Virus genome (UHGV): UHGV-1378817
Source: a virus
Strand: one strand, 5' to 3'
DNA: 64,000 nucleotides
Within the stretch, counting starts at the first letter, position 1; every line of letters starts with the position of its first letter. Below are positions 1-23,372 of this stretch, piece after piece. A program made the translations under genes and the position numbers. The notes below the pieces were generated by a model. That model had not been told where the DNA came from. It saw only the letters and a list, made by a program, of their open reading frames with translations, and did not search any database.

Positions 1-1202
1 AAGGTCCCTAAGAAACCTTCTCTGTGGATGCCTTGGAAATAAACACTTTCTGTCCAGCTAACTGGCAGGCGTTGCTCAACATATTTAGCTGTAGCAAGAG
101 CTTGATAGTGGATAAAATTTGCCCTAGGGCTATTGTTTGCAGATTGTGCACCAATATCATTACACAAGTTGCGAGAGAATCCACGATACTGCTTAGTGCC
201 ATTGTTGAAGAAAATGCCACTTGTGCCGTACCCACGAGCCATTATTACCTCATGGGTGTAGGTGATATTTAAGGAACGCCATGTGTCATCTCCCCAGACG
301 TCTTGCCCGTAGAATACGTTAACAAGCTGCTGGTCATTGGGTGTGTGCATCCTCTGTGTGGCAATTATTGCCCCGTTAGGACCGCACATAAACCCTTTCC
401 ACTCCTCATCTGCAGGAATGCCTCTCAAATCGTTACGAGTAATCTGCACAGGAGGCCAAACAAGGTCGTTTCTACTGTTATTTCTCAGAAAGTCGTATCC
501 AGCAATCCAGAAACCTCTAGGACCACCGAAAATAACAGAGTTGTCATGAACTTCACAATTAATTCTTGGATTTTTCCAAGGACCTGTCTCTGGACTTTCA
601 GATGTTTCACCGATCTTTACAGGGGTTGCATGCTGATTTTTATCTACATGCAAAGATCCGTAGGTGTTGTTACCAGATCCATACAGGTTCAGTATGCCAG
701 TGCCTTCTGCTTCTGCAATAACCCAGACCGTGTTGTTAATACCTCCCATCACCTCAATAAGGCGCTCTGGGTGGGTGTCAAGGTGCAACCCTTTAACGAT
801 CTGTTCAGGAAGAGGTGTCCACTCTCTTACACAAACATCATTACCGCCTGCAGCATCAGACCCAATAAGCCCTGCCGTGCAGCCGATGTAGAAAAACTGG
901 TTATCAAAAGTTCGGATCACAAACGCACGGTCTGCTCTCCACACATGATCAACGTTCCAGGCAGCCTCGTTGGGATAGTTTATCGTGTCAAGATCCCCAG
1001 TGCGGCACTCTCCGAACCTGTTATAGCCCGTGATATTAAGTTGACCATCATCAAAGAGTATAGCTAAGCTATTTACATAGGATACTGTGTTGCTTGTACC
1101 ATCACTGTTGTCTATTGGGTATGACAGAACAGCAAGTTCCTTAATTCCACCCCTCTTATCGAGGAAATGACGACCAAGTTTTAGCAAAGGGATTGGAAGC
1201 AT
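1..1202 (-). CDS. tail fibre/spike-like structural protein, partial (C-terminal part runs off the window edge)
   Basis: Minus-strand frame is open from ATG (plus 1200-1202) to position 1 with no stop, checked codon by codon; GGAGA 7 nt upstream of ATG; absent from ORF track because it has no in-window stop; lies at distal end of the fibre cluster. Confidence 0.4.
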   Translation of the reverse strand, partial: MLPIPLLKLGRHFLDKRGGIKELAVLSYPIDNSDGTSNTVSYVNSLAILFDDGQLNITGYNRFGECRTGDLDTINYPNEAAWNVDHVWRADRAFVIRTFDNQFFYIGCTAGLIGSDAAGGNDVCVREWTPLPEQIVKGLHLDTHPERLIEVMGGINNTVWVIAEAEGTGILNLYGSGNNTYGSLHVDKNQHATPVKIGETSESPETGPWKNPRINCEVHDNSVIFGGPRGFWIAGYDFLRNNSRNDLVWPPVQITRNDLRGIPADEEWKGFMCGPNGAIIATQRMHTPNDQQLVNVFYGQDVWGDDTWRSLNITYTHEVIMARGYGTSGIFFNNGTKQYRGFSRNLCNDIGAQSANNSPRANFIHYQALATAKYVEQRLPVSWTESVYFQGIHREGFLGT

Positions 1203-1220
1203 TGTGTTCTCCAGATAAGA

Positions 1221-1246
1221 AAACCGCCCCGTCAGGAGCGGTTAGA
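1221..1246 (-). terminator. candidate intrinsic terminator
   Basis: On minus transcript: stem AACCGCUCC / GGGGCGGUU with UGAC loop, followed by U-rich UUUUCUUAU; sits between stop of 1251..2996 and next start. Confidence 0.35.
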
Positions 1247-1250: not shown

Positions 1251-2996
1251 TTAACGTTGTGCAATTACCACGTCTACGATATCACCAACACCGCAATACG
1301 TTAATTGCAGCAAGGTAACACTGTTAGCCTTGTTGTTAATAACAGGTGTTGCCGACAGGATAGCATACTTATCGTGCAAAGTCACGTTGTGACCTACAGC
1401 ATCCTGAATGACATAGATAACTGCAGTGAATGGATAAGGTTTATCTTCCGCTGATGTACCAGGCCATTGCCCTATTGTAAAATCCCCTTTCGCGTGAACA
1501 ACATACATGCTGGCCTGCCCGTTAGGTGTCCATGTCCCACTGGACGCGTCAACCTCCTCTAAATCAAAATCTACCTTTCCTGCGTGGAAAGTAGGGGCAG
1601 TAATGGTTTTACCCGCCTCAATTTCTTGAGAGGTGGTTATCTTACCACTGGAGTTAATGCCATTACAAACAAAGTTGACATTAGAGAAGTCTGGCAGCCA
1701 CCCAGTCACTGTGCCGGATATTTCAAGGTTGTGAAGGTAGGTGGTGCCCGTCCCTGCTGCGTTTAAACTAACATCTCCATTTACCTGCAAGTTTCTGGTA
1801 ACGTTGCAGTTTTCAGAGTTTGCAGTTGTTGCAGTTAAAGTAGTGGTTGTCAGCTCGGTAATTACACCTTTGTTGGCTGTAAGCCCTTCCCCTTCAAAAG
1901 TTGCACGCTCATTGACTCTTAGGGTATTCAGAGCTATGTTTTGGATAGAGGCTGTACCTCGAATAACTACAGATCCGCCAACTTCTAAATCACCATTTAT
2001 TAATGCGTCCCCCGTACTTTCAATATAGCTAGGGTAGATCATGGTGCCATCGACAGAGTAGGTTATCCCTGTAACAGTGCCTGTCACCTCAAGGTTCTTA
2101 ACCCTGGTGGTTCCATCTACCTGCAATGTCGGTTCGGTTGCTGCCTTCATGGCATTACCACGAATGTACACGTAGTCAAAAAAGTTATTACCTAGACCAT
2201 CAAAATGCACATCGTTATTATTAGCCACTGGTTTCCCAGAAGTTATAGTGTCAGCTATAACCCTGTGGGTGGACACTTCATGAGGTTGCAGCTCTGTGCT
2301 TCTCCAGTCTGCATGTTTAGGATCGCTCCACGCAAAAGTAAGTGTAGAAGTATTTGCCGTGAGGATTAGGTTCCTGAAGCGTGCAGTAGAATCTGCTCCA
2401 TTAACAGGCCCATGTAAGGTGAGTGTGCCCCCAACTATGGTGTTAGCAAGTTCTGTAAGACCTTTTACCACCAAAGACCCTACAGTAACTTTCATTCCCT
2501 CCATGGCTTCAAATATGCTATCCACATAGTCAACAACAAACTCTGTGTTTGCTATAGACTCAGACTTATCGTCCATTGGAGGCGTAGGTACTCGCGGGTC
2601 ACCTTCGAACCTCGGGCTGTTAAGTTTTGCGTAGTATTTTGCCATTACTGCAGAATCGGTATATAATCTCCAGTTTGGAGATTGTGAAGGATCTGCTGGC
2701 ATTCTAACAGGGTTAGATTTTGATGCTGCGGGAGCGTACCACCACTGAGGACCTGTGTCCCCTTTAAACTCGTACAGCTGGTTAAAAACTGTTGTGGATG
2801 CGCCATACGCCCAAGGGATCGGTGGCGTTTTAAAATAAAGGTTGTCAAGCATGGCTTTTCGTACCGTAGGGATGGTGGTCCCATCCTCTACGACAACTTC
2901 ATCCACAGCGTTACCGTTGACAACCAAGTGCAAACGTTCAGAATCAACAATTACTTGATCTACCGCCTGCTCAAAGCTTGTCATGTCTTGCGCCAT
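1251..2996 (-). CDS. tail fibre / tailspike protein (581 aa)
   Basis: Long ORF in fibre cluster; Gly/Thr/Asn-rich repetitive beta-type sequence (e.g. TGTVTGITYSVDG, GDLEVGGSVVIRG) typical of fibre/spike shafts. Confidence 0.55.
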   Translation of the reverse strand: MAQDMTSFEQAVDQVIVDSERLHLVVNGNAVDEVVVEDGTTIPTVRKAMLDNLYFKTPPIPWAYGASTTVFNQLYEFKGDTGPQWWYAPAASKSNPVRMPADPSQSPNWRLYTDSAVMAKYYAKLNSPRFEGDPRVPTPPMDDKSESIANTEFVVDYVDSIFEAMEGMKVTVGSLVVKGLTELANTIVGGTLTLHGPVNGADSTARFRNLILTANTSTLTFAWSDPKHADWRSTELQPHEVSTHRVIADTITSGKPVANNNDVHFDGLGNNFFDYVYIRGNAMKAATEPTLQVDGTTRVKNLEVTGTVTGITYSVDGTMIYPSYIESTGDALINGDLEVGGSVVIRGTASIQNIALNTLRVNERATFEGEGLTANKGVITELTTTTLTATTANSENCNVTRNLQVNGDVSLNAAGTGTTYLHNLEISGTVTGWLPDFSNVNFVCNGINSSGKITTSQEIEAGKTITAPTFHAGKVDFDLEEVDASSGTWTPNGQASMYVVHAKGDFTIGQWPGTSAEDKPYPFTAVIYVIQDAVGHNVTLHDKYAILSATPVINNKANSVTLLQLTYCGVGDIVDVVIAQR

Positions 2997-3005: not shown

Positions 3006-3272
3006 TTAAGCTTTTTGCTCTTCGTTTTTAACGTGGTCAGGGTGCTGGCAACCCCACCGGAGCGAGATGAATTTGCTAATAAGCTGGGGGCAAGCTACTG
3101 AAGGTGCATATATCCACGCATACCATTCGGGAAGCGTATCATTGTACCCCATATGAATAAACACCCCAGTCATCACCGCCATGCCTATGTTCGACCATAG
3201 CTTAGATTGGGACACTTTCGTAGGGTCATCAGATGCCGCAACCAGCCCCCATAAAAACTGAGTTAGTTTCAT
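3006..3272 (-). CDS. hypothetical small protein (88 aa) with one hydrophobic segment
   Basis: ORF tightly packed between two fibre genes; hydrophobic stretch WSNIGMAVMTGVFIHMGY; no recognisable motif. Confidence 0.35.
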   Translation of the reverse strand: MKLTQFLWGLVAASDDPTKVSQSKLWSNIGMAVMTGVFIHMGYNDTLPEWYAWIYAPSVACPQLISKFISLRWGCQHPDHVKNEEQKA

Positions 3273-3283: not shown

Positions 3284-4327
3284 TTAAGCATAAGATATAG
3301 TGATCCATTGACCATTTACAAGTTTTTGGATAGCACCTGTCCAGTAATCACCTTGATAAGGGTGTTTATAAGCGTAGTTACCAGAGCACATCACATGTCC
3401 AGGGTAGACTCTTGACTCTCTGTAGGTGGTTTTGAAACGATTTGCTATCCTTACATCATCAACCCCTCTACTGGGCATAGGGATAGTAAGGTTACCACTA
3501 CCGTCTGCGCTGTTACCATTTACCCTGCGGACCACGTTTCTTCCACCAACTGTTGCATATTGGCCCCTAACGGTTTCATCGTTACAATCAACTCTTTCAC
3601 CTATTTGAGCGCTTCCGCAGGATTGTTGTCCGTTGACAGTTGCTCTTGGTATCGTGACCGCATTGGCATTTGCAGAGGAACTTTTTGCATCATTGCATTC
3701 AAGATTTCCTTGGATAGCCAGTCTTGCACGGTTGGCAGTTATAGCATTGAGCTTCATAGCCGAAAACACAGGCTGCCCACCAGAAGGTTGAAATCTCCAA
3801 CGGAACCCGTCTATTTGGTGAGAAGGATCATCAAGATCTGTGCCGTCAGCACCACCGATGTTGTCCATAATCCAGAAATCCATTGTCGTCTTGTCTGGAG
3901 TTATGGTGGTATATATTGCCGCACTATCTGTTGACGCAGATGCAAACTCGATTCTTTGAAGACCTAAAGTTTGAGTCTGAGTCATTATGTCTCCAGACTT
4001 GTCAACATATAGATCGTCCATTTCTTCAGGCGAGTATACATTGAGAACTTGACGTGCAGCAGCTTTGTCTGGAACGTCTGCTAGATTATTAGTGACCCTT
4101 AAGAATCTATTATCCCATCCTGGGACAACATCTTCTGTTAGATGCTTTAACCACGCAGAAAGCATGTGAAGTTCAAAGTTAACAACTTCACATGCCATTC
4201 TTTGTGTCATATCCCAACCTTTCAATCTCTCTTCTTTTTTTGGTTGAGACTTATTCAACTCTCCCGTATTTTCAAGCACAACATCCTGATTGGCCCAAAT
4301 ATCAAGAGGGATAACTGGTTTAGTCAT
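3284..4327 (-). CDS. tail fibre protein, paralog A
   Basis: N-terminus (PLDIWA..QDVVL.NT....GWD) and C-terminus (QKLVNGQWITISYA) match 5342..6382; GDIMTQTQTLGLQRIEF resembles the GDTMTG motif of phage fibres; start taken at ATG 4327 (AGGAGA 5 nt upstream) rather than GTG 4330. Confidence 0.7.
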   Translation of the reverse strand: MTKPVIPLDIWANQDVVLENTGELNKSQPKKEERLKGWDMTQRMACEVVNFELHMLSAWLKHLTEDVVPGWDNRFLRVTNNLADVPDKAAARQVLNVYSPEEMDDLYVDKSGDIMTQTQTLGLQRIEFASASTDSAAIYTTITPDKTTMDFWIMDNIGGADGTDLDDPSHQIDGFRWRFQPSGGQPVFSAMKLNAITANRARLAIQGNLECNDAKSSSANANAVTIPRATVNGQQSCGSAQIGERVDCNDETVRGQYATVGGRNVVRRVNGNSADGSGNLTIPMPSRGVDDVRIANRFKTTYRESRVYPGHVMCSGNYAYKHPYQGDYWTGAIQKLVNGQWITISYA

Positions 4328-4357
4328 CACGTTCTCCTGAGAAAATTCCTTAGGACT

Positions 4358-4416: not shown

Positions 4417-4731
4417 TTACCTTTTACTATGCTCTACGAGCATGTGCAAAATCTTTTGTACATCAGCTCGGATACCGGAAACATCTGTCCTGACATCCTG
4501 CTTAAGGTCGTTAATATCGGCCTCTAGCTTGCTTAACCGGGTCTCGATAACGGAATCAAGTCTATCTTTTGTAACCATACTGTTTTTCACTAAGATGAGG
4601 TCTTTCTCCAGCTCATCCAACCTCTTGGAAATGCCTTTCCATTTGGTGTGCCACTGGTTGAAAGCCCATACACAGATCGGGACAACGGTACCCATGCAGA
4701 TACCGTACAATGCCGCCAAATCCAACTCCAC
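4417..4731 (-). CDS. membrane-anchored coiled-coil protein (104 aa), function unknown
   Basis: N-terminal hydrophobic helix (LYGICMGTVVPICVWAF) followed by heptad-rich charged region (ELEKDLILVKNSMV..LSKLEADINDLKQDV). Confidence 0.5.
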   Translation of the reverse strand: MELDLAALYGICMGTVVPICVWAFNQWHTKWKGISKRLDELEKDLILVKNSMVTKDRLDSVIETRLSKLEADINDLKQDVRTDVSGIRADVQKILHMLVEHSKR

Positions 4732-4742: not shown

Positions 4743-5327
4743 TTAGAGGGTAGGTCGCTCCGGGAAGAAAATGTCAGGGGCTTTAGATGTATCTATTTCA
4801 AGAAGTTTTACCCTGTACATTTTCAAATCTCTGATGTTACGTTTCTGGTCATCAGTAAGATCATATTCAAGGTCAATCATGTCTTGATAGGCACCAATTC
4901 TAGCAGTAGCCCAAGCAAGTTCTGTCTCTATGACACCCTCTGCCTGTTGAACAAAGAATTCATTGTCTGTGACAAATTCATCACCAACTAAACGCAAAGC
5001 GTCGTGGTGAAGCATAATGTTTTCTGGTACCTCTTCTTTTTTGGCGATAACCACACGAAGACCTGGAGCAGGCCATAAGGCATCAGGTTCTTCTGTAGAT
5101 GTCTTAAGAATTCCCTTTTCGTCAACAAGTAGGAAGATACAACCCGGATTTTCTTGTCGTAATGTTCGTGACTGCACATACCAATCGCCATCATCATTAC
5201 GTAAAAAATACCCAGTGTATGCGGTGTAATCCTCAACCTCTTGAGGGGTCAGCTCTTTGGTTTCCTTGTTGGCGTGGTATTCGCCAGATCCCGGTTGGTA
5301 AAGTTTAAACTCTTGAAGTATTTTCAT
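4743..5327 (-). CDS. tail fibre assembly protein (Tfa-type chaperone)
   Basis: C-terminal region MYRVKLLEIDTSKAPDIFFPERP matches the conserved C-terminal block I recall for Caudovirales tail-fibre assembly proteins; located immediately downstream of fibre gene 5342..6382. Confidence 0.6.
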   Translation of the reverse strand: MKILQEFKLYQPGSGEYHANKETKELTPQEVEDYTAYTGYFLRNDDGDWYVQSRTLRQENPGCIFLLVDEKGILKTSTEEPDALWPAPGLRVVIAKKEEVPENIMLHHDALRLVGDEFVTDNEFFVQQAEGVIETELAWATARIGAYQDMIDLEYDLTDDQKRNIRDLKMYRVKLLEIDTSKAPDIFFPERPTL

Positions 5328-5341: not shown

Positions 5342-6382
5342 CTATGCATAATTAACAGTGATCCATTGACCGTTTACAAGTTTTTGTAAAGGTCCTGCCC
5401 AGTAAGTTGAACCACGCATCTCTTTTTTGTCACCGAAATGCCAGCCTGTGACAACGTAGCCGTTGCGGATTGGAGATTCAGAAACGCCGTCCACAAGTCT
5501 TGCACCGATTCTGATGTCTTGCACACCTGTCTGTGGGATAGTGATCGTTACATCACCGTTACCGTTAGCCGTCACCCCGTTCACAGAGCGAACCACATTT
5601 CTGTTACCGACAACACAGTGCTGGCTTCTTACAACCATACTGTCACAACTTGCACCACCATTAACATATACTGACCCAGCCGTCAACTGACTAGCCACAT
5701 TACAGTTGGTGAATGTTGCGGTATTGCTGATAGTAAGGTTATTGCACCTCATGTTATCGACAACTTCAACATTGCCTACCACTTTCAACAGCGCACGGTT
5801 AGCCGTGATCGCGTTAAGGTACATCAAAGTGAACTCCGGATTAATATCCGGCTGAGTTGGCTGGAATCTCCAACGAAACGCATCTATTGTAGATGTGCCA
5901 CCATCATCAAACGCCCCAATATTATCACTTAACCCAAAGTCGAGAGTTGTCTTATCTGGGCCAATGGTTGTCTCTATCCAAGCCTTATCTGTCTCGGCAG
6001 CTTTAAAGTTGATACGTTGCAAACCCAATGGGCCTGTCATTGTATCACCTGTAACTTTTACATACCTGGCGTCTGCCTCTTCCTTAGTAATAATCCCAAG
6101 GTTTCTACGGGCAACAGGGATGTTCAAAAGATCACTCAAGTTATTATCACGTACCAGATAACGACCTTCTTGAGCGGGGATCTGCTCGTCAGCAATGTAT
6201 TTTGCCCAAGTCCCGAGCATATTGAAAATATAGTTAAGCTCTTCGCACGAGGGCTTTTGACCAAGATCCCAACCTTTTCTCCACAAATCATCAATCGGGC
6301 GTAGCCTGTTCTGTCTGTGGGTGTTAGGCAGAACCTGATCCTCCTCTGCCCAAATCTCTAATGGAAAACTAGGTTTTGACAT
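5342..6382 (-). CDS. tail fibre protein, paralog B
   Basis: Shares N- and C-terminal blocks with 3284..4327 (PLEIWA..QVLPNT....GWD ... LQKLVNGQWITVNYA); contains GDTMTGPLGLQRINF. Confidence 0.7.
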   Translation of the reverse strand: MSKPSFPLEIWAEEDQVLPNTHRQNRLRPIDDLWRKGWDLGQKPSCEELNYIFNMLGTWAKYIADEQIPAQEGRYLVRDNNLSDLLNIPVARRNLGIITKEEADARYVKVTGDTMTGPLGLQRINFKAAETDKAWIETTIGPDKTTLDFGLSDNIGAFDDGGTSTIDAFRWRFQPTQPDINPEFTLMYLNAITANRALLKVVGNVEVVDNMRCNNLTISNTATFTNCNVASQLTAGSVYVNGGASCDSMVVRSQHCVVGNRNVVRSVNGVTANGNGDVTITIPQTGVQDIRIGARLVDGVSESPIRNGYVVTGWHFGDKKEMRGSTYWAGPLQKLVNGQWITVNYA

Positions 6383-6394: not shown

Positions 6395-8467
6395 TTATGA
6401 GAAGTCTGGCGGGACAACATCTTCTACATACCCTTTCAAAGCAACCTGCCCCATATGAAGCACGGTAGAATCTCTAGCGGTAACAGTGATGCTGTCGGAC
6501 ATTACTTGCGGGTATGCCCACACATACTGTTTTACCTCAGGGTATCTATACTCTATAGTTGCCATGTTTCCGCAAATACATCTCCATAAAAATTCTTGGT
6601 AATTCCTAGTTGGGTCGTAGCCATATACCGGAGCAAGCTCTTTACTAGGAACGAACCCTGCAAGGTATTGTATTTCGGACGGTTGCCAACCTAACTTAAC
6701 GATAGGTATGTTTACAGACTCTTTTGCCTTTTCAATACCTCCCTGCATCACCCAATCGTAGCACTCGGTGCAGAAGAAATCAAGAGCACCTGCTTCCTTT
6801 TTATATTGGTCAGCAAGGTTCAGCTTTTGTGTAAGCTCAGTTTCCATAATGGTTGGGAAAAACAGCAAAGCTGTCATCTGAGCTGATGCAGCGTGTGCCT
6901 TTATTGCCTTTGAAATAGCCGCAATACGAGCGCCAAGCTTACCACGACAAAATGCTACATACTTGTCGTAAACACCACCAGTTTTAGGATCGTCAATAGT
7001 CCCAATATCTAATGCATACTCACCTGTCTCATCATAAAACGCCTGCTTTGTAGGGTAATCATAAATACAAGGTCTACGAGTATCGGTATTGTACCACCAC
7101 CACGGTTCACCAACCTGCATAATCACTGGCAGGTTGTTTCTCATAGCGGCTGATGCAAAATTCTTAAATACTGCAGTAAGGAAATTCATACCCTCTTCAA
7201 TGGTTGGGGACAGGAGGTAGCTACAAGGTGTATACCCTGTTTTAGCGTAGTTATCGTTCCAGTCTCTTTGGGTCCATTCCAACGGGCAGGCATCGCTGAA
7301 AAGCTCAAAACTTACAGATTGCATAACGTCGAAGTTATGTCGTTTGGCATTGTACATAAAATCATCATGCCATTTATAAGCTGCAGCGTTTAGAGCCCCT
7401 GTTCTGTTTATAGACCATTGGGTTCCGGACCATGTGTAGTCATAATAATGACTCATACCAACATAATGGTTTATGGTTCCGGTATAGCCCAGACGCTTGA
7501 TATTGTTCAACACCCTTAAAGGAGACACGTTCCACATATCGTCATATGCGGTGCAGATCCCAACGTCGTGCTCTCTCACCTGGATATTGTTAAGTTGCAT
7601 CATTTTCCAGCCTGTGTCTGGCTGAAGCAGATCTAGGCGCAACTCACACTCTACATTTTCCGTTCTCGGGTCTGTGCTGTTACTTACCCAGTCTTTAGGC
7701 ATAAGTGGTATTAAAATCCTTCTCACCTGCCGAGGATCAACACCCATCATGCTGTTATTCTGGTCCATCCCGACGCAGTCCTCAAAATCAATATGAATTT
7801 CTGCAACATTCTTATCCTCTGAGATGCTGACAGCATATTGAGCTAAAGGAACATAGATGATTGTGCCATCAACAAGGTCTACAGTCATAATCATCTTTTC
7901 AGGAGTGGAGAAGTTGCTGGCGTTGGTTATTGACATTCTGAACCAAAGCTTGGTGTTTCTCATCTCATAGTGATCATCAAACCCAATACCGAAATGGTCA
8001 TACTTGTCAACTGTTTCCCAAATGCACCCAGCCATACCTCCATATGTTCTTGACACTAAACGGTTAATACAACAGTTGTTATCTGCAACAATACAGGTAC
8101 TTTCAGTCTGCTGAGTAGTTGTAACCCAATATCTTGGGTGAAACATTCTCTCCTCGACAGTATCCCAAGATATCCTGTCAAGATTCTCATCTGAAACTAT
8201 TGTACATTTCGCCCTTTGTGTCCCAATCATCACCCCTTGAGATTTTGATGAAAACTCCATAAAGAAGCTTCTTGGTAACCTGTTGGGTAATTTGTCAACA
8301 ATTTCCACTGGGATCTCAATACTGGTTGCCCCAATTGGGATAGTTACATCGCCCTCAACATGATTATAATCTCTACCAGGAACGGCAGTATCCTGAACTG
8401 TTCGGTAATGAAACTGTGCAGCCATTGTAGAGTAATCACGGTAAGGTTTAAAAACAGCTGTTGCCAT
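6395..8467 (-). CDS. tail fibre/spike protein (690 aa) with Calx-beta-like N-terminal segment
   Basis: TAVPGRDYNHVEGDVTIPIGATSIEIPVEIVD resembles the Calx-beta pattern; large Trp/Tyr-rich C-terminal region could be enzymatic; position in fibre cluster. Confidence 0.45.
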   Translation of the reverse strand: MATAVFKPYRDYSTMAAQFHYRTVQDTAVPGRDYNHVEGDVTIPIGATSIEIPVEIVDKLPNRLPRSFFMEFSSKSQGVMIGTQRAKCTIVSDENLDRISWDTVEERMFHPRYWVTTTQQTESTCIVADNNCCINRLVSRTYGGMAGCIWETVDKYDHFGIGFDDHYEMRNTKLWFRMSITNASNFSTPEKMIMTVDLVDGTIIYVPLAQYAVSISEDKNVAEIHIDFEDCVGMDQNNSMMGVDPRQVRRILIPLMPKDWVSNSTDPRTENVECELRLDLLQPDTGWKMMQLNNIQVREHDVGICTAYDDMWNVSPLRVLNNIKRLGYTGTINHYVGMSHYYDYTWSGTQWSINRTGALNAAAYKWHDDFMYNAKRHNFDVMQSVSFELFSDACPLEWTQRDWNDNYAKTGYTPCSYLLSPTIEEGMNFLTAVFKNFASAAMRNNLPVIMQVGEPWWWYNTDTRRPCIYDYPTKQAFYDETGEYALDIGTIDDPKTGGVYDKYVAFCRGKLGARIAAISKAIKAHAASAQMTALLFFPTIMETELTQKLNLADQYKKEAGALDFFCTECYDWVMQGGIEKAKESVNIPIVKLGWQPSEIQYLAGFVPSKELAPVYGYDPTRNYQEFLWRCICGNMATIEYRYPEVKQYVWAYPQVMSDSITVTARDSTVLHMGQVALKGYVEDVVPPDFS

Positions 8468-9153: not shown

Positions 9154-9164
9154 ATCTCGCCGCC

Positions 9165-10655: not shown

Positions 10656-10688
10656 GTCACTCCTCCGGTATGAAAATCTCTACAAGGT

Positions 10689-10717
10689 ATTTTACCAAAT
10701 TTTGTAACAATAGTCAA
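10689..10717 (-). promoter_or_regulatory. candidate promoter TTGACT-17-TGG-TAAAAT
   Basis: Minus strand reads TTGACT ATTGTTACAAAATTTGG TAAAAT; -10 at plus 10689-10694, -35 at plus 10712-10717; TGn extended -10; about 30 nt upstream of the GTG start at 10655. Confidence 0.45.
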
Positions 10718-10723
10718 TCTGAG

Positions 10724-10752
10724 CATAAAAATAAACCCCGCCGAAGCGGGGC
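10724..10752 (-). terminator. intrinsic terminator (UUCG tetraloop hairpin + U tract)
   Basis: Plus CCCCGC-CGAA-GCGGGG (10736-10751); on minus transcript GCCCCGC-UUCG-GCGGGGU then UUUAUUUUUAU; immediately after stop of 10761..14600. Confidence 0.6.
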
Positions 10753-10760
10753 TTTAAAGG

Positions 10761-15591: not shown

Positions 15592-16168
15592 AGAAGTTGA
15601 TAACTATATTATCACCTTTTTGCATAGCATCGACTTTTTGCTTAATTTTATAAATATCTCTGATATGAAACCTACCCTTCGGGGATTGAGTTATTATCTT
15701 CATAGTGTCCCCTGCTGCAATAGGTTTTCTAAGTCTTGGAGATATGCTTATAACAGCAGACCCAACACCATCGCTACGCACTGGAGCTGTTACCACTTTC
15801 AATTCATCATTGACAGATATTTTATCCCCAGCTCTGGCTATGTCTCTGTTTGGCTCCCATCCGACCGTCTTCAAAAAATCGTCGTTACCAGTAGGCCCAA
15901 GGGCGATTGGCTCATTAGCTGTTACTGAGTGACCGTAAGTTTTAATGAGAAAAATGTTCCCATCTTTATACACCTGATCAACAAAGCTCTTAAGCTCTAG
16001 CAACTGTGACTCGCTGATATTGGAGACCGTCAAAGTGCCTTTCCAGTTAGGTGTGGCATAGGTTACTTTTTGCGTCTTACCTGTAAACGGACTTTTAAAC
16101 GTAACAATATCTGCCAGCAGCTCCAATCTGATATCTGGAAGGTATCTAGGCCTTTCCCATAAAAACAT
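15578..16168 (-). CDS. minor tail protein (196 aa)
   Basis: ATG with CCTCC-complement SD (GGAGG) upstream; first gene after a terminator-promoter cassette. Confidence 0.4.
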   Translation of the reverse strand: MFLWERPRYLPDIRLELLADIVTFKSPFTGKTQKVTYATPNWKGTLTVSNISESQLLELKSFVDQVYKDGNIFLIKTYGHSVTANEPIALGPTGNDDFLKTVGWEPNRDIARAGDKISVNDELKVVTAPVRSDGVGSAVISISPRLRKPIAAGDTMKIITQSPKGRFHIRDIYKIKQKVDAMQKGDNIVINFFEDF

Positions 16169-16199
16169 TGTGCCTCCAGGTTAAACAATCATGATAGTT

Positions 16200-16228
16200 A
16201 TTTTACCAGATTTTGAGTTAATACGCAA
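16200..16228 (-). promoter_or_regulatory. candidate promoter TTGCGT-17-TGG-TAAAAT
   Basis: Minus strand: -35 TTGCGT (plus 16223-16228), 17-nt spacer, TGG + TAAAAT (plus 16200-16205); shares TGGTAAAATA with three other late-region sites. Confidence 0.4.
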
Positions 16229-16230
16229 TA

Positions 16231-16260
16231 CAAACAAAAAGCCCCCGCCGAAGCGAGGGC
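16231..16260 (-). terminator. intrinsic terminator (UUCG loop)
   Basis: Plus GCCCCCGC-CGAA-GCGAGGGC (one mismatch); minus transcript hairpin followed by UUUUUGUUUG; directly after stop of 16268..20068. Confidence 0.5.
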
Positions 16261-16267: not shown

Positions 16268-19200
16268 TTACTTCAATTTCTCTTGCAATCCAGTAACAAC
16301 CTCTGTCAATTTTTTAACCTGCTCCTCAAGGGCGGTTATTTTATCGTCCTGTTCCCTGCAAACCTGGACAAGCAAGCCTGTTACAGCTGCGTAGTCAACG
16401 TTATAGAACCTTTCCTCAGTCATTAAAGGAATGCCGTCTTGAGTAGGACCTTCTATTTCCTTCCTTTTCACGAAAGATCCTACTGCCTCTGGCAATGCTT
16501 CCATAACCTCTTGAGCAATCACGCCTGCATAAGGCATACCATTCTCTTTCAAGGTGTAGGTATAGCCTTTCATCTTTCTAATTGCTTCCAGAGCGTTAGG
16601 TATGACCTCTATGTTATCCTTCAGGTCCCTATCGGAACTTTGGCTAACAGTAGTACATTCTACCGTGCCGTTGACAGCAAAATATCTTGATTTAGCCTCA
16701 TCTGCCTTAGCGCCACAGTGGAATACCCAGCTGGCGACTGTTGAGTTATCACTTATCTGAAACTCCAGCACATTCTTCCTATCTGCGCCATTACCCCAAT
16801 AGTACAACCTGCCTGTATTAGAAGGCATGTTGGAAGTGTTGGTAACATCCGTCCCACCACCTGTGTGTATTGTGAACTCCGGCTCAAGATTGGATCCTTG
16901 AGTTTTTAAAGTGATACCTTTACCACCAAGCTGCTGCCAATGGCCCCATGTGAAAACACCACCTATCGTTGTTCCGTAACGCAGGAATTTTTCTCCAAGA
17001 TATGTCGTATATTCCTGTACGCAACTCTCTGGAACGTTGGCATAGTTTCTGTAGACAACTAGAGTACCTGCCTGGGAGCATGGGTAGTTTTTATCAAGTG
17101 CGGCTTGAGCATTAGCCTCTTGATGATAAAAACCCTCTCTATCCCCTTTGTAGTCATTAAGGTCATTAGTCCCCAGCCCTTGACCACGGTGCTGAATAAC
17201 CTTGTTCCATGCCCTATGGTTACCACCCTCGATAGACCTGGTGTATAACTGATCAAGGCGACCAGCCATTTGGAAGGCATAGTTTCCAGAAAACGCCACA
17301 GACAGTCCGCCAACAACCATCGAACCTTCAGGTCCGTTGACGTTGCCAGCCATTATTTTGGACGGATTATTATTCCCGAACTGGTTGTTCCAGTCTGCAC
17401 CTGTGTGGCATACAAAACCACCCGGTGCTGAGAAAGTACCATCTTTGTTGAAATTGTAAAATCTGTGAGCAGAACCTACAATATCGCGAACAATAACTTG
17501 ACCAGCCTCTGGAGTAGATCTGAACTCTGCCTGACCTTTGAGACCAGCACCATTACCGCATTTAGAGGTAAACGTACCGTTAGTCAGATCCTCTGTCCCA
17601 TCGGATGCGCACTGGAATCCTGCATTAGAGAATAACGCCTTTCTAGGACTGCCGTAGCACAAATAGTCAAGACCGTCTGCCCATAGCTCGACTTTTGGCA
17701 TATTCATTTTGCTCATCACAGCATAGCGTTCAGCAGTGCCTATATAGTGCCACTGTGTGCCGCCGCCAGTGTAGAACCCTGAAGTACCTTTGAAGTCAAC
17801 AATAGGTCTGGTATTGGTGTTGTTATCTCCAAGAATAGCAAGATTCAAATCTGCTGACTGAAGAGGTGCAACGAACTTAACCCCATCCTGATTGTCTGTT
17901 ACAGCCCCGACCTGGTAATCTTGCTCTCTGGTAAACACTTCGACAACATTTCTACTTGCGTATATGCTGACAGGGAAAGCACGAGCTTCTACATAGAAAG
18001 CAACATACTCTTGTTTACCCCTTGTTGGAGCAACCATCCCAAGAAGTGCTTTTTCATTCTGGTAGAAATTTACTACCCCGTAGAAAGAGTCTCCTCTGTC
18101 TGTCCAGCCACCAGTTCTATAGTGACACTGCAGAGTGGCACAGTTCATAGGATCATTTCCAGATGAAGACCTGGTGACTATAGTAATATCTGTACCTGTC
18201 GAAGGGGCGTAATACGGATCTGTTCTAACGATGATTGGGTAGTATTTCCCATCTTCCATCCCTGCGGTTCTTGGCAGTGTTAAGAAGTCTTTTACACCTG
18301 CTGCTATAGGAACTTTGAACAGATTCTGAGCATCTGCTAAAGTTGTAGCCCCGGTGCCACCTGCGGCTTGAGGTAGAGGTTCCCACTTGGCCTTCCGGTT
18401 GTTATAAACACCCCATTCCAGAGTGCCGTTACCGGATTCGTCCATCCCGCCATCCCAGACAACCATCTTGGCGGCTTTCTTGGACCCCCAGAAGCCTCTT
18501 TCTGCCCCTGAACTACGGATCCACTCTCCAAGTCCCCAGTTTGTCAGCTGACCAGTAAGATCCCCAACCTGCATATATTTAGGACAGTCTAATACACCGT
18601 CTTCGCGGAAACCTAAATATCTATGAGTTTCAGATCCTTTTGCACCTTTGTGCAGGTGGATTGTCAACCAAGCCTTATTGTCGTTTCTTACCTCAGAGTA
18701 GATCCTATATCCATGCTCAAGGACACCGTCAGCGCTGTATTTGTCCCCGTTAACAATACCTGATGCTGACTTAACATCAGCAGAGCTTTGAGACAGGTAA
18801 AGGTGCCCGAAGGTAGGGGTATTTCTAGGCCCAAGACCGATGTGCGATCTAAAGGTATCATCGTTACGAGGTCTGACCATCGGCTGCCATGCAGTCCACT
18901 GGTTTGTGTTGGCCTGATAGGTTCTCAAATACCAAACATCTACGTTAGAGAATGGATAGTATTCCTGACGACAACCTGTACCGCCGTTAGCATTGTTCTG
19001 CCAAACAATCAAGTGACCAGCACCAGAACCTGCAGGGTAACCATTTGCCTCAGTTGCATTAGCAGTCATCGGCTGGTAGTACACACCATCCTGATTACCA
19101 GTCAAGTTATTGATATTGAAATTTGCCTCAAGGGCTGCACGTTGCTTATAGAAAGCCCCTAAGTTAATGCGTGCACCTGCGGCATCTCTGGCACCTGTAC

Positions 19201-20068
19201 CGCCTTGCTCTATAGCAAGAGGTTGCCACGAGGCTGTTTGTTGGTTCCACATACCCCAACGACCTGTTGCGTCAAGCTGCAAGTACCCTGCCGTGTTTAA
19301 ATCATCTCCAGCACGAATAACTGTTCTTGTTGGGTTATTTGCCTCTAGGCGTTTAAATTCATCACGAAGTGCTATTCTTTTTGTTGTTGCTACACCGTTG
19401 GTTACTGCAATGGTATACATTGCTCCGGAGGTAGCGCCACGGAAAATACCATCAACAGTTGTAGTATCACGACGAGATACCACACCGTTCAGAAATTTTT
19501 CACCAGCTGCTACAGAAGGGTAGTTGGTAGTTCTTCCCTCTTCAATAACTGCAGCGCCAACAAAGTTATCAAGGTGAATAACATCGCCTACAGTATGCAC
19601 TGTACCAAAATCTACACGCTGTGCAAGGGCTTTAGCATCGTTAGCTGTCTGAACAGTAACATCCATTACATCCTGCACAGACTGCCCTTCAGCTGTCATG
19701 ATCATAGATGCGCCAATGGTGGATTCCAGCTCCTCCCTTAGGGACGGGTCAGTATATACCATCCATGCAGCGTCAGTAATCCCACCATCGGAGTACGGTG
19801 AAGATAGTGCAGGAACAGTGTGTGGAAATTCGCCTTTCCAACGCAGGTAGAGGTCTTCCTCTTCGAAGTAGGCAAAATCCATTGGGCCGTTTAACTTACC
19901 ACCTTCCTTAAAGGAGATTACATGAGAAACAGTCCCATCCACATGGACAACATCGCCAATTTTTACACGACGAGTCAGGTCTGGTTGTTGAACAACCAGG
20001 TAATCATCCTCTGTCACTGCGGTAGTGGCAGGAAGAGATTCAATTCTGACAACTTTAATATCAGCCAT
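16268..20068 (-). CDS. long tail fibre with C-terminal intramolecular chaperone (S74-type autoproteolytic) domain
   Basis: 1266 aa; C-terminus has SDRDLKDNIEVI..GYTY..AQEV motif and a terminal coiled coil, matching the self-cleaving chaperone domain of endosialidase/L-shaped fibres; N-terminus has LVV..TRR.KIGDVV anchor-like motif. Confidence 0.65.
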   Translation of the reverse strand: MADIKVVRIESLPATTAVTEDDYLVVQQPDLTRRVKIGDVVHVDGTVSHVISFKEGGKLNGPMDFAYFEEEDLYLRWKGEFPHTVPALSSPYSDGGITDAAWMVYTDPSLREELESTIGASMIMTAEGQSVQDVMDVTVQTANDAKALAQRVDFGTVHTVGDVIHLDNFVGAAVIEEGRTTNYPSVAAGEKFLNGVVSRRDTTTVDGIFRGATSGAMYTIAVTNGVATTKRIALRDEFKRLEANNPTRTVIRAGDDLNTAGYLQLDATGRWGMWNQQTASWQPLAIEQGGTGARDAAGARINLGAFYKQRAALEANFNINNLTGNQDGVYYQPMTANATEANGYPAGSGAGHLIVWQNNANGGTGCRQEYYPFSNVDVWYLRTYQANTNQWTAWQPMVRPRNDDTFRSHIGLGPRNTPTFGHLYLSQSSADVKSASGIVNGDKYSADGVLEHGYRIYSEVRNDNKAWLTIHLHKGAKGSETHRYLGFREDGVLDCPKYMQVGDLTGQLTNWGLGEWIRSSGAERGFWGSKKAAKMVVWDGGMDESGNGTLEWGVYNNRKAKWEPLPQAAGGTGATTLADAQNLFKVPIAAGVKDFLTLPRTAGMEDGKYYPIIVRTDPYYAPSTGTDITIVTRSSSGNDPMNCATLQCHYRTGGWTDRGDSFYGVVNFYQNEKALLGMVAPTRGKQEYVAFYVEARAFPVSIYASRNVVEVFTREQDYQVGAVTDNQDGVKFVAPLQSADLNLAILGDNNTNTRPIVDFKGTSGFYTGGGTQWHYIGTAERYAVMSKMNMPKVELWADGLDYLCYGSPRKALFSNAGFQCASDGTEDLTNGTFTSKCGNGAGLKGQAEFRSTPEAGQVIVRDIVGSAHRFYNFNKDGTFSAPGGFVCHTGADWNNQFGNNNPSKIMAGNVNGPEGSMVVGGLSVAFSGNYAFQMAGRLDQLYTRSIEGGNHRAWNKVIQHRGQGLGTNDLNDYKGDREGFYHQEANAQAALDKNYPCSQAGTLVVYRNYANVPESCVQEYTTYLGEKFLRYGTTIGGVFTWGHWQQLGGKGITLKTQGSNLEPEFTIHTGGGTDVTNTSNMPSNTGRLYYWGNGADRKNVLEFQISDNSTVASWVFHCGAKADEAKSRYFAVNGTVECTTVSQSSDRDLKDNIEVIPNALEAIRKMKGYTYTLKENGMPYAGVIAQEVMEALPEAVGSFVKRKEIEGPTQDGIPLMTEERFYNVDYAAVTGLLVQVCREQDDKITALEEQVKKLTEVVTGLQEKLK

Positions 20069-20104: not shown

Positions 20105-22702
20105 TTAAAGGTACAATCCACGGTATTGAGCATAAAGGCCCAGACCGCGAAGGATTTCGCCAGAGTGATAGCCAACCGGATCAGAAACTGCCCAGCAGCC
20201 GTTTAAAATATTATCCCCATTAATGAAGTGGTGCTTTTGCAGTAGCTTCACACAGGCTTCCACAACAATATCTATTTGAGGTATTGTCTCTGAATACCCG
20301 CACAGACCTAGCCAGCAGCAACCTGCAAGCCATTCACCTACCACCCACATCCTGTCTCCTCTGTCCTGATAAGAATATCCCCCAGAGGTGTTAAAGTCTG
20401 TAGGCAGATTTCCTGAATGAGATGACTGGAATCTGTTGAGGAACCATGCCCATTTCTGGCAGAACAGGAATAGTCTTTCATCAACAGGTTCTTTATGTTT
20501 CTTGAGCTCATATATTGTGCGGCACGCAGCAACAAAAGATCTTGACTGGAGCTTAGAGTTATCTACCATCTCCCACCAACCAGTCAACCCTTCATTACCT
20601 CTTTGCCATACATAACGTGAGGCAACTGGACCCTCTGTCTTAAATGTATTATTATACCAGACTTGAGCGTCATACAGAAAGCCTATTGTATTTGACAATC
20701 TATGGCGATCTATGTTTTCTGCACCCATGCAGTAGACTGCTGGGTATTGCATACCAGGGTAGGGCCAATTTGGCCTTTCCTCTAAGAGATAGTTTTCCTT
20801 ATCTATCACCTTTCCGGCAGGGAACACACCCGGTGTGTGCCTGTATGCACCTTGCTTGTAGTTTCTGACATAGCAATCGCCAACCTTAGCGGTTGATTCT
20901 GTCTTGCTTGCCATCCATACGCTAAACCAGATTAGATAAGCATCCCTATCTGCAATATAAAATTGCGGCAGTGTGTTGACGCAATACAGATCAAACAAGC
21001 CATTACCTATCTGCCTGTCGCTTAGACTGAAATCTACAGAGGTTAGCCCCTTAGGATTAGCAAAGAAAGGTTTAATCTCTTCTTCGGTGTGATGAGGTTG
21101 TGTCGGATCTAGTTTGAAATCTCCTAGGGTAAGAGTTTCTGTTATCCATTGTCCATTGGTGGCATATAGATCAGCATACCATAACCACCTGTCTTTGTCA
21201 AGAAATTTGACCCTTACCATCTCATCATCTGATCGATAAGTTACTGAGTTTAAAGAAATCTCTCTTCCAAAATTGAAAGTTACTTTGCCTCTTGCTATAT
21301 TACAACGGGTGAAGTTGTCAGAGTGGTTGTAAATGTCGGTATCATACTGCATACTGACACTAGCACCACCGCTTACGGCAATGTTTTCCTCTTTAGGTAA
21401 GAGATACGGATTACCGTCTTTACCAACTACCTCTACGAAATCGGTAACCTTGGCAACTATTTCTGTTACCTCTGCCCCTCCAAAAGGAACCCCTATCCTG
21501 TACTGTTTTTTGTTATTGTTGCCATCATTAAGGATGAAATGTGGCTGGAATAGAACCCCTTCTCCTCCGAAATTCATAACAATTTCAGCATCTCTGCCTA
21601 TTTTGTATGTAGTCCCTTTTTGAATTATTTCGCAAGGCTGGCGTGCGTTCATTCTAAAATTGATATACCCGTCACTGTCCCTGCTCATGACAGGAACTGT
21701 TCCTGCAACAAGACAAGTACCATCTGTGAACGGTGCCTTAATCAGCGTGGTCTTTCTAAACAGCTTGTCGTAGGCGTTTATATCACTGAAATTAAGCAAC
21801 TTGTTGTAAGACTGTTTAAACGCGGTGTAATACTTTTCCTCACCTGTCAAGGTGTAGAGTTGATAACAAGCGTCACACCACATTTCTTCCCCGTCCAACT
21901 CTGGGGCCTGATTATCTGCAACCACGTTTATAGGATTTACAATTACAGGGGATCCTGCAGGTATCACCGATCCACCCTGCTCTTGAGGTAATCTTACACA
22001 ATAGGTCACCTTGTGGCTGCCTGTAACACCCTTATCTTGTAGTTGGATTGTGCCGAACTCTACAGACGTATGACCACTGTCGGCTATGCTACCGTTAGCC
22101 CAATAGCGGTTACCATCCCATGCTATATACCACTCAACCCACCAACTTAATCCGGATGTTGTCCAATCTGGGTTAGCATCTGTGCCACCGTAAACATCAG
22201 AGTCTACAGTGTTTCTTCCTAACACACCGTTATATGCTTGAAATGCCTTGTCTAGGTATTCCCCCCATGTCGGAGATCCAGCTGGGATTTTTCCTCTACC
22301 ATTGGTAAAAGACACCACCACATCTTTAAACCCACCATGTGATGGAACCCCATCTGTGGATAGAGGGTAGTGGGACAATCTTTGCATTTTACTTTCTACT
22401 GCATATGCACCCAGAAGATGGCTATTGTAAGCTTCCCAAGCATCTTTTGCCCTATCCAAGTAGAAATCGCTTTTCGATGCCCTGTATGCTTCAATGTACC
22501 CCAGAATCAACACAGCTTGGGACTCGTGCATTGCCCAATCATTATTTATCTTATTACCTGCCCACCCTGCAGCTATAAGACCATCAGGGTTTACTAGCTT
22601 ATTTTGTGTAGGGGTGTTGGTAATACCTGTGTTGTTATCGAGGCACTTCCTGTGCCCCTCAATCATCTGAAATACGTTATCAATGTTATGTTGAATACGC
22701 AT
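20105..22702 (-). CDS. large tail-associated protein (865 aa), possible enzymatic spike
   Basis: 865-aa ORF between fibre genes; Trp/Tyr-rich globular sequence without fibre-like repeats; function not assignable by eye. Confidence 0.4.
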   Translation of the reverse strand: MRIQHNIDNVFQMIEGHRKCLDNNTGITNTPTQNKLVNPDGLIAAGWAGNKINNDWAMHESQAVLILGYIEAYRASKSDFYLDRAKDAWEAYNSHLLGAYAVESKMQRLSHYPLSTDGVPSHGGFKDVVVSFTNGRGKIPAGSPTWGEYLDKAFQAYNGVLGRNTVDSDVYGGTDANPDWTTSGLSWWVEWYIAWDGNRYWANGSIADSGHTSVEFGTIQLQDKGVTGSHKVTYCVRLPQEQGGSVIPAGSPVIVNPINVVADNQAPELDGEEMWCDACYQLYTLTGEEKYYTAFKQSYNKLLNFSDINAYDKLFRKTTLIKAPFTDGTCLVAGTVPVMSRDSDGYINFRMNARQPCEIIQKGTTYKIGRDAEIVMNFGGEGVLFQPHFILNDGNNNKKQYRIGVPFGGAEVTEIVAKVTDFVEVVGKDGNPYLLPKEENIAVSGGASVSMQYDTDIYNHSDNFTRCNIARGKVTFNFGREISLNSVTYRSDDEMVRVKFLDKDRWLWYADLYATNGQWITETLTLGDFKLDPTQPHHTEEEIKPFFANPKGLTSVDFSLSDRQIGNGLFDLYCVNTLPQFYIADRDAYLIWFSVWMASKTESTAKVGDCYVRNYKQGAYRHTPGVFPAGKVIDKENYLLEERPNWPYPGMQYPAVYCMGAENIDRHRLSNTIGFLYDAQVWYNNTFKTEGPVASRYVWQRGNEGLTGWWEMVDNSKLQSRSFVAACRTIYELKKHKEPVDERLFLFCQKWAWFLNRFQSSHSGNLPTDFNTSGGYSYQDRGDRMWVVGEWLAGCCWLGLCGYSETIPQIDIVVEACVKLLQKHHFINGDNILNGCWAVSDPVGYHSGEILRGLGLYAQYRGLYL

Positions 22703-22703
22703 C

Positions 22704-23372
22704 TTAGATAGCTCCTGCGATAATCAGTGCCCCGTACCAAGTTAACCCGTTGTCGTAGGTTTCCAACTTGAAAATATCTGTTGCACCAGCTGTAAATGTT
22801 AGGATAGGATCTCTTCCGTAGGACCATTTAACATTACCAGGCCAATAGACTTTGTTGCCGCCAGAGGTCTGAGTAATGCATACGGTTATAGTTCTCGCCA
22901 CCCCTTCAAGACCTTCTGTTTGATTTTCAAAAGAGATTGTGGTATTTGAAGTTAGTCGAACCTTAAAGGTATCCGCAACTTCAAGATCCATATCAAGCTG
23001 ACCACCGATAGATCCGTAATCAACTATTCTGCCAGAAGAAGTTGCAGCAAGCTCACCAAAAACAGACCAGGCATTTGCAGACACGCCCCCAGCACCCTCT
23101 ACAGTGGAGTCTGGTAGGATTATTTTAGGATAATCCCCGTTCCACGTGTAGTAGCGCTTAGTCTCTGGGTCATAAGCAAAGTCCTTCTTGCTCTTAAGAT
23201 AACCACCCTCTGTGAAATAGACTATCTTAGTAATACTAAGATCGTTGACAACATCGTCAATCTTAGCCTTTCTTGTCCCATCAGTCTGGTTGACAACCAA
23301 GAAGTCATCACTCAGGACTGTTTCTGCATCTTCAAGATCTGGAATTGGTATTGTAGGATAAGCTACAGCCAT
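22704..23372 (-). CDS. short tail fibre-like protein (222 aa)
   Basis: N-terminus PIPDLEDAETVLSDDFLVVNQTDGTRKAKIDDVV parallels the N-terminus of 16268..20068 (ESLPATTAVTEDDYLVVQQPDLTRRVKIGDVV). Confidence 0.45.
   Translation of the reverse strand: MAVAYPTIPIPDLEDAETVLSDDFLVVNQTDGTRKAKIDDVVNDLSITKIVYFTEGGYLKSKKDFAYDPETKRYYTWNGDYPKIILPDSTVEGAGGVSANAWSVFGELAATSSGRIVDYGSIGGQLDMDLEVADTFKVRLTSNTTISFENQTEGLEGVARTITVCITQTSGGNKVYWPGNVKWSYGRDPILTFTAGATDIFKLETYDNGLTWYGALIIAGAI

Follow-up and report, generated by a model that had tools for sequence, protein, structure and literature searches.

The DNA analyzed here, hereafter the window, is a stretch of 64,000 nucleotides (nt) from the virus genome UHGV-1378817, and we focused on its first 23,372 nt, which contain a cluster of tail fibre and spike genes. 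Positions 1-23500 shared 97.6% DNA identity at 100% coverage with the Escherichia phages rV5_ev147, slur16, and JohannBauhin (Bas53), and 132 phage records matched this region, 100 of them over at least 80% of the query. According to the database records, these are Vequintavirus (rV5-like) myoviruses of E. coli with genomes of ~136 kb. The open reading frames (ORFs) corresponded one to one in their coordinates with the annotated coding sequences (CDSs) of JohannBauhin/Bas53 and rV5_ev147, the encoded proteins were 95-100% identical to their counterparts in these two phages, and the genes between the tape measure and the final large fibre gene were arranged as in the Vequintavirus locus. The sequence itself is not new, because it is near-identical to many deposited genomes, and a novel allele or a new phage was excluded by the same protein identities.

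Nine fibre- or spike-like ORFs had been named in the original prediction, and all of them are present on the minus strand and coincide with annotated CDSs of Bas53 and rV5_ev147, taking up ~18.0 of the 23.4 kb. Two boundaries could be refined. The partial ORF at 1-1202 is the first 400 codons of an 1878-amino acid (aa) gene, with its start codon at 1202 and the remainder past the window edge, and the gene at 3284-4327 has an annotated ATG at 4327, the ORF listing alone extending to a GTG at 4330. These are real genes and not chance ORFs, because the rV5 counterparts gp30, 33, 37, 41, 42, and 43 were detected in virions by mass spectrometry, as was gp32 (PMC3606486). We inferred the rV5 gene numbers used here by combining protein lengths with what PMC3606486 and PMC8594841 state. 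The nine genes are as follows.

1-1202, minus strand: N-terminal 400 codons of an 1878-aa 'lateral tail fibre with Ig/intimin domains' (inferred rV5 gp27; annotated CDS bas53_0040)
1251-2996, minus strand: 581-aa lateral fibre (inferred rV5 gp28; PDB 9cuy_g, phrog_4549)
3284-4327, minus strand: short tail fibre paralogue 1, 347 aa (rV5 gp30; phrog_4465 at 3e-166; homologue of phi92 gp147)
5342-6382, minus strand: short tail fibre paralogue 2, 346 aa (rV5 gp33; phrog_4465 at 1e-171; homologue of phi92 gp147)
6395-8467, minus strand: 690-aa fibre with an N4-like TIM barrel (rV5 gp34; orthologue of phi92 gp142; Pfam and PDB matches, GMSHY motif)
10761-14600, minus strand: lambda-J-like protein, 1279 aa (rV5 gp37; Pfam Ig_J, Ig_J_second, Phage_Tail_Tip)
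16268-20068, minus strand: 1266-aa long lateral fibre (rV5 gp41; Pfam Tail_spike_N and Peptidase_S74)
20105-22702, minus strand: 865-aa tail protein (rV5 gp42; orthologue of phi92 gp141; model with an (alpha/alpha)6 barrel and beta-rich inserts)
22704-23372, minus strand: 222-aa small spike or adaptor (rV5 gp43; Pfam Tail_spike_N at residues 51-105)

The proposed fibre or spike identity was borne out by direct fibre, spike, or glycan-binding signatures in seven of the nine ORFs; the eighth (865 aa) models as glycosidase-like, and the ninth (1-1202) is less certain. Fibre, spike, or glycan domain matches in most of the ORFs thus argue against the possibility that most of these proteins are baseplate or internal components lacking binding or enzymatic domains. 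The two short fibre products are paralogues with 43.5% identity, and the gene for a Caudo_TAP chaperone (4743-5327), of the Mu gpU/lambda type, is located between them. The product of 5342-6382 resembled PDB 9cuy_c ('Short tail fiber') at its N-terminus and the Mu 'Tail fiber protein S' (5yvq) at its tip, and the tip was 60% identical to phi92 gp147, which is fibre III of phi92 according to cryo-EM (cryo-electron microscopy; PMC13450770). Residues 8-325 of the 581-aa fibre matched PDB 9cuy_g, the 'Putative tail fiber protein' of a solved virion, at 1e-77; its N-terminal residues 6-112 were 46% identical to the N-terminus of phi92 gp150 and its C-terminal residues 486-581 were 48% identical to the C-terminus of phi92 gp151.

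The 690-aa fibre contains the Pfam domains Calx-beta, NCTSP_N, and TIM-barrel_NCTSP (PF23845, 4e-80), matched N4 Gp64 (PDB 9lc0) at 2e-24, and was 42% identical to phi92 gp142 over 689 aa. Its deacetylase-type TIM barrel carries, at residue 337, the GMSHY motif, whose conserved presence is reported to predict that a fibre binds the N4 glycan receptor (NGR; bioRxiv 10.64898/2026.04.02.716166), and this combination is that of an N4-type NGR-binding fibre. Judging from its sequence, the 690-aa fibre probably binds NGR. The TIM barrel and GMSHY are common to N4 Gp64/Gp65, but in the window the domain is embedded in a myovirus fibre with Calx-beta and NCTSP_N, and only one sub-domain is in common with N4 Gp65 (bioRxiv 10.64898/2026.04.02.716166).

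Tail_spike_N (PF18668), the N-terminal attachment domain of TSP1/Gp66 in the CBA120 (TSP1-4) and G7C (gp63.1/gp66) complexes, was detected in the 1266-aa protein and in the 222-aa protein, each time at 2e-10, and their PDB sequence matches include CBA120 tailspikes 3 and 4 and related chains. The likeness to these complexes is one of attachment domain. A Pfam scan of both proteins found no beta-helix tailspike family, and no beta-helix tailspike body was identified. In the 1266-aa fibre, the anchor domain (residues 46-103) is combined with Peptidase_S74 (residues 1145-1196), a C-terminal intramolecular, self-cleaving chaperone, and distal parts of the protein resemble siphovirus side fibres. 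Alleles of this fibre in relatives were 80-99% identical, and some share residues 1-1046 alone, indicating that the tips are swapped between alleles. The 222-aa protein was 38% identical to the 1266-aa fibre at its N-terminus and 42% identical to phi92 gp140 at its C-terminus.

The 865-aa protein had neither a Pfam match nor a PDB sequence match. A homologue search returned 6 relatives for this protein (and 3 for the 183-aa tip protein described below), making the alignments shallow or unusable. A profile of six sequences gave weak matches to (alpha/alpha)6 enzymes and the fold search of the predicted model agreed, so that structure prediction and fold search, the check suggested for the fibre genes, supported an (alpha/alpha)6-barrel glycosidase-like fold; a BFVD search with the model gave low TM-scores. 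The Bas53 record notes "glycosidase domains" for the counterpart, in line with the predicted fold. The 400-aa product of 1-1202 matched positions 1-400 of 1878 of phrog_15684 at 3e-279 and, partially, phrog_11922 'tail protein', with no Pfam match, no PDB sequence match, and no phi92 homologue by BLASTP. Its gene is the least conserved of the cluster (95-96% identity to relatives). The role of the 1878-aa Ig protein is less certain, and this is the weakest of the nine fibre cases.

The fibre locus of rV5 and other Vequintavirus phages (rV5 gp27-gp49; Bas51-Bas59 of the BASEL collection, e.g., Bas53) has the same genes in the same order and with the same lengths. As described in PMC8594841 and PMC3606486, it comprises a chaperone-accompanied pair of short-fibre paralogues, one fibre of the deacetylase type, and three large fibres that vary between alleles, all shared by the window. 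No substantive difference from rV5-like phages was found, and the window carries known alleles of the 1266-aa and 1279-aa fibres. The set of fibre genes had been considered unusually large, which does not hold within the genus Vequintavirus, where it is ordinary.

A second relevant system is phage phi92 (Justusliebigvirus), which is said, after Schwarzer et al. 2012, to have a multivalent adsorption apparatus. The window has orthologues of phi92 gp135-gp142 and gp144-gp148, that is, the tube initiator, plug, hub, spike, sheath initiator, gp140-gp142, the wedges gp145/gp146, gp147, and the chaperone. The Baseplate_J wedge pair gp145/gp146 and the orthologues of gp140, gp141, gp142, and gp147 were recovered by BLASTP at 29-42% identity over the full length. 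The likeness lies in several fibre types on one baseplate, an arrangement that is predicted for the window. BLASTP found no match in the window to the phi92 endosialidase gp143, and only the first ~110 residues of the colanidase gp150 were matched. Unlike phi92, the window thus has no catalytic body of gp143 or gp150; of gp150 and gp151 it shares just the N-terminus and the C-terminus, respectively, both in the 581-aa fibre. The short fibre is duplicated. Phi92 has no counterpart to the J-like tip operon described below (10761-16168; four genes, no phi92 homologue by BLASTP), to the 1266-aa fibre body, or to the 1878-aa Ig protein.

The fibre genes are accompanied by accessory genes that had not been listed in the original prediction, namely the fibre chaperone gene (4743-5327), three small tip genes (14600-16168), and the wedge genes (8467-10655), the last of which match phi92 gp146 and gp145 and had rightly not been claimed as fibres. 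The neighboring core genes at 23382-27096 were named by BLASTP to phi92 gp139, the baseplate spike, gp137, gp136, and gp135, with roles taken from PMC13450770. The tape measure had no phi92 match by BLASTP and was assigned by position, its 778-aa size, and rV5 gp49 numbering alone, as it is not covered by the annotations of relatives that were used.

3006-3272, minus strand: 88-aa small membrane protein (phrog_1322 'membrane protein'; 35% identity to phi92 gp144)
4417-4731, minus strand: 104-aa conserved protein (phrog_5345, a 'function unknown' family)
4743-5327, minus strand: tail-fibre assembly chaperone (Pfam Caudo_TAP at 8e-12; 31% identity to phi92 gp148)
8467-9153, minus strand: baseplate wedge subunit (phrog_4056 'baseplate protein'; 29% identity to phi92 wedge protein gp146)
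9165-10655, minus strand: baseplate wedge subunit of the Baseplate_J type (Pfam Baseplate_J; 31.5% identity to phi92 gp145, full length)
23382-24098, minus strand: sheath initiator (BLASTP to phi92)
24111-24788, minus strand: central spike (BLASTP to the phi92 baseplate spike)
24788-25792, minus strand: hub (BLASTP to phi92)
25792-26172, minus strand: plug (BLASTP to phi92)
26185-27096, minus strand: tube initiator (BLASTP to phi92)
27174-29510, minus strand: tape measure, 778 aa (position upstream of the tube-initiator gene, size, and rV5 gp49 numbering, PMC8594841)

The predicted membrane protein at 3006-3272 is an unexpected member of a cluster of virion fibre genes.

The J-like gene is the last of a four-gene block that has the composition of a siphovirus tail tip. 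In addition to 10761-14600, the block and its boundaries consist of the following features.

16199-16260, minus strand: 5' boundary of the tip operon, with an intrinsic terminator (16260-16241) and an exact late-promoter motif TGGTAAAATA (16208-16199)
15578-16168, minus strand: Dit (distal tail protein)-fold protein, 196 aa (rV5 gp40), first gene
15025-15576, minus strand: 183-aa tip protein (rV5 gp39; phrog_2048 'tail protein'), second gene
14600-15025, minus strand: DUF6950 protein, 141 aa (rV5 gp38; Pfam DUF6950 at 1e-32), third gene
10688-10754, minus strand: 3' boundary of the tip operon, with an intrinsic terminator (10754-10733) and an exact rV5 late-promoter motif TGGTAAAATA (10697-10688)

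The 1279-aa J-like protein has a hub-like part at its N-terminus, Ig/FN3 domains, an inserted coiled coil, a tail-tip fibre domain in its central region, and 150 C-terminal aa found only in the genus. It matched Ig_J, Ig_J_second (2e-30), and Phage_Tail_Tip (1e-38) in Pfam and lambda J in the PDB (8iyk, chain J, 9e-29), and BLASTP aligned it to lambda J at 4e-18 and 9e-18. An NCBIfam search added only lambda_TipJ, for this protein. The LamB-binding C-terminal domain of lambda J was not matched, as the alignment stops at J residue 990 and the last ~150 residues of the window protein are unmatched. Compared with an 83%-identical allele (MG065653; 1199 vs 1279 aa), all differences fell within residues 651-950, with 93-100% identity in both the hub part and the last 330 residues. 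The variable part is therefore the coiled-coil shaft and not the presumed receptor-binding tip.

The closest modules are those of Queuovirinae (VogelGryff bas25_0017-0020), the N15-like PY54 (ORF17-22), and enterobacterial prophages, and lambda M-L-K-I-J and T5 pb9 are more distant systems. In VogelGryff (Seuratvirus) and Yersinia phage PY54, a homologue of the 196-aa protein directly follows the tape-measure gene, then come size-matched genes and a J-like tip protein. Identities to the positional counterparts in VogelGryff and PY54 were 31% and 37% for the 196-aa protein, 38% (bas25_0018) and 29% (ORF18) for the 183-aa protein, and 44% (bas25_0019) and 42% (ORF20) for the DUF6950 protein. The J-like protein was 54% identical to VogelGryff J over 684 aa and 40% identical to that of PY54, and the J alignment spans residues 48-721, the hub-like part included, and 895-1095. 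Citrobacter koseri prophages likewise have, after a Tape_meas_lam_C tape measure, 197-aa, 194-aa, DUF6950, and J-like proteins, the last with Ig_J_second and Phage_Tail_Tip. A tblastn search with the 196-aa protein returned 119 phage records at ≥90% identity, matching the Vequintavirus set, and 194 others, all at <60%; in the sampled rows the latter were all phage genomes of 42-83 kb save one 1.7-kb fragment, and many were annotated "distal tail protein".

The window block begins with the gene for the Dit-fold protein. High-E-value Pfam scans of the small tip proteins and the J N-terminus gave nothing beyond a weak Phage-tail_3 match (E 0.096), hhalign comparison of three-sequence profiles of the three small proteins with lambda M, L, and K gave no signal (probability <5%), and a profile of the Dit-like family, searched against the PDB, gave 0 matches. 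The Dit assignment accordingly rests on fold, PHROG family, and gene position. The DUF6950 protein and lambda gpK had no similarity detectable by hhalign. In a three-sequence alignment of the DUF6950 proteins, two motifs were invariant, WG..DCC.FAA and QRGD.V. They resemble motifs of NlpC/P60 peptidases, and 'cell wall hydrolase' is the name given to the gene at 14600-15025 in the Bas53 record. The four tip genes are labeled tail fibre, baseplate protein, cell wall hydrolase, and lateral fibre with FN3 domain in Bas53, and "central tail fiber J" or "distal tail protein" in automated annotations.

The block differs from siphovirus modules in its position. It lies ~10.5 kb downstream of the tape measure (block 16168-10761, tape measure 29510-27174), among the fibre genes of a contractile-tailed phage with its own hub, spike, and wedges, and not directly downstream of the tape measure, where such a module closes a non-contractile tube. 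In the window, the tape measure is followed by myovirus tube-initiator, plug, hub, and spike genes. Compared with siphovirus J, the J protein has an additional coiled-coil insert (~170 aa), and its C-terminal region (~150-180 aa) is specific to the genus. All four ORFs are intact, and their products were 98.6-100% conserved among relatives.

Two near-identical pairs bracket the block, each with a GC-rich hairpin and T-tract followed ~30 nt on by an exact copy of TGGTAAAATA, a late-promoter-like motif reported for rV5 (PMC3606486). The block looks like an independent late transcription unit, given that a terminator and TGGTAAAATA are present on both sides. Its GC content does not deviate from that of its surroundings, so base composition gives no sign of a recent foreign origin. 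Further exact copies of TGGTAAAATA occur at 30341-30350 and 33862-33871, and 18 occurrences were found with one mismatch allowed, compared with 6.1 expected.

How these proteins might act together can be considered in light of the receptors of the group. Vequintavirinae depend genetically on wecB and nfrB, that is, NGR (PMC8669472), and on the lipopolysaccharide (LPS) core genes waaC and waaG (PMC8594841; PMC8669472; bioRxiv 10.64898/2026.04.02.716166), and NGR and LPS-core glucose are the two genetically established receptors of the group (PMC8669472, PMC8594841). Glycan binding and enzymatic activity of the fibres are predictions from domains and folds. Homology strongly supports the two wedge proteins (8467-10655) as the docking platform for several fibre types; in phi92, fibres I and III dock on gp145 (PMC13450770). 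By homology, the short fibres (3284-4327 and 5342-6382) correspond to phi92 fibre III and to the fibres recognizing LPS-core glucose, and the 690-aa fibre (6395-8467) probably targets the NGR surface glycan. Tail_spike_N in the 1266-aa and 222-aa proteins is the type of anchor that hangs several receptor-binding proteins on one adaptor, and may fix the two to a common adaptor, possibly the 865-aa glycosidase-like protein. Such an arrangement would be analogous to that of phi92, where fibre I is L-shaped and fibre II branches off at its base. Glycan-binding and -degrading fibres would then carry the virion through the capsule, O-antigen, and NGR layers, after which the short fibres would bind the LPS core irreversibly and set off contraction. 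A wider host range may come from the large variable fibres (the 1266-aa fibre, the J-like protein of 1279 aa, and the Ig protein of 1878 aa), and a J-type tip complex encoded by the 16168-10761 operon could form a further fibre set.

It is thus highly probable, judging from sequence, that positions 1-23372 are the host-recognition part of the Vequintavirus late structural region, with several fibres and spikes on one contractile-tail baseplate. The branched, multi-receptor apparatus that had been envisaged for the locus is supported by the domain matches and by the related phage phi92. In phi92, a branched multi-fibre architecture with three distinct fibre sets was seen directly by cryo-EM (PMC13450770), and a passage in PMC8594841, citing earlier phi92/rV5 work, refers to three co-expressed fibre sets visualized in phi92 and to the repertoire as a "nanosized Swiss army knife". 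The 2026 phi92 cryo-EM paper leaves fibre II unassigned and mentions neither gp141 nor gp142 (PMC13450770). Several points weigh against this interpretation. The window holds just 400 of the 1878 residues of the Ig protein, a portion for which no informative domain match was obtained. The model of the 865-aa protein is of moderate confidence (predicted local distance difference test score, pLDDT, 67.5; six sequences in the alignment) and is glycosidase-like in fold only, and both this and the 222-aa protein may be adaptors or scaffolds instead of receptor binders. Fibre placement was extrapolated from phi92, because our literature search turned up no Vequintavirus baseplate structure, and phi92 itself has no J-like operon, 1266-aa fibre body, or 1878-aa protein. 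On E. coli K-12, moreover, the phages behave in effect as monovalent, with NGR used first and the LPS core next (PMC8594841). An alternative is an apparatus that is structurally complex but not truly multivalent, in which just two or three proteins (the NGR fibre and the short LPS-core fibres) are true receptor binders and the other large proteins are adaptors, scaffolds, or shaft segments of one composite fibre. It would fit the high conservation of most of the locus in Vequintavirus and the need of all tested members for the same two receptors on K-12 (PMC8594841), the central position of the J-like variation (coiled coil 651-950, with an 80-aa length difference) away from the tip, the 222-aa protein being mostly anchor domain, and the absence of gp141 (the 865-aa homologue) from the fibre candidates named in the phi92 cryo-EM paper, where it goes unmentioned (PMC13450770). 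We nevertheless consider it unlikely, since the cluster encodes several independent domains (NCTSP TIM barrel, (alpha/alpha)6 barrel, J tail-tip, Mu gpS-like tip, and S74-chaperoned fibre tip), the tips of the 1266-aa fibre are swapped between alleles as is typical of receptor-binding ends, three distinct fibre sets were seen in phi92, and the group reportedly lyses a broad range of hosts (PMC8594841).

For the tip operon, the tip complex cannot sit at the normal tube-end position, because the phage already encodes a tube initiator, plug, hub, spike, sheath initiator, and wedges of its own, and it would instead be a peripheral fibre base. We tentatively suggest, as a possibility that falls somewhat short of an even chance, that Vequintavirus co-opted the entire tail-tip assembly of a siphovirus in the form of one self-contained late operon. 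Its Dit ring protein, pair of small tip proteins, and full-length J hub-fibre would be mounted on the baseplate periphery as a lateral fibre set, a 'tail tip without a tail'. Alternatively, the block could be a passenger or decaying remnant of recombination with a siphovirus, with no role in the myovirus virion, as its absence from phi92, the terminator and promoter pair on either side, and the occurrence of sampled homologues outside the genus in siphovirus-sized phages or prophages might suggest. This is very improbable, given the intact and highly conserved ORFs, the ≥90%-identity homologues throughout the matching Vequintavirus set, the block's own exact late-promoter motif and unremarkable GC content, and the detection of rV5 gp37 in purified virions (PMC3606486).

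The multi-fibre apparatus is the established description of rV5 and phi92-type phages, and nothing is new in this copy; the cluster rediscovers a textbook-level feature of phages that are common therapy and biocontrol candidates owing to their broad host recognition. The tip operon is the sole element with some potential novelty, and the literature searched yielded no paper on Vequintavirus that discusses a complete tip module of siphovirus type. If the co-option is true, peripheral mounting of a tip would be an attachment mode without structural description so far and a new route of tail-module exchange across morphotypes, and the operon would provide a defined four-gene cassette for host-range engineering and help in assigning the unassigned fibre densities of this phage group.

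Among the GenBank records matching the E. coli rV5-like sequence of the window, 18-20 are titled 'Campylobacter phage' (e.g., MG065647, MG065646, and MG065653), some of them UNVERIFIED. Two of these were 97.1% identical over 98% of the 23.5-kb region. In these records, the host assignment is probably wrong or the sequence a contaminant.

Beyond the fibre cluster, the first 47.5 kb of the window is transcribed from the minus strand, and at ~47500 transcription diverges, with minus-strand genes to the left and plus-strand genes to the right; the GC skew flips sign there as well. Seven tRNA genes are located at 42751-43563 on the minus strand (Pro, Met, Thr, Ser, Tyr, Arg, and an odd 99-nt tRNA-like gene). 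Parts of this cluster matched 738 phage records at ≥80% identity, 11 of which are named Tequatrovirus. The tRNA-like gene (42996-43094) was assigned a 4-base anticodon by ARAGORN and scored 35.5 bits against the Rfam tRNA model, and relatives label it variously as tRNA-Pseudo, tRNA-OTHER, or tRNA-Lys.

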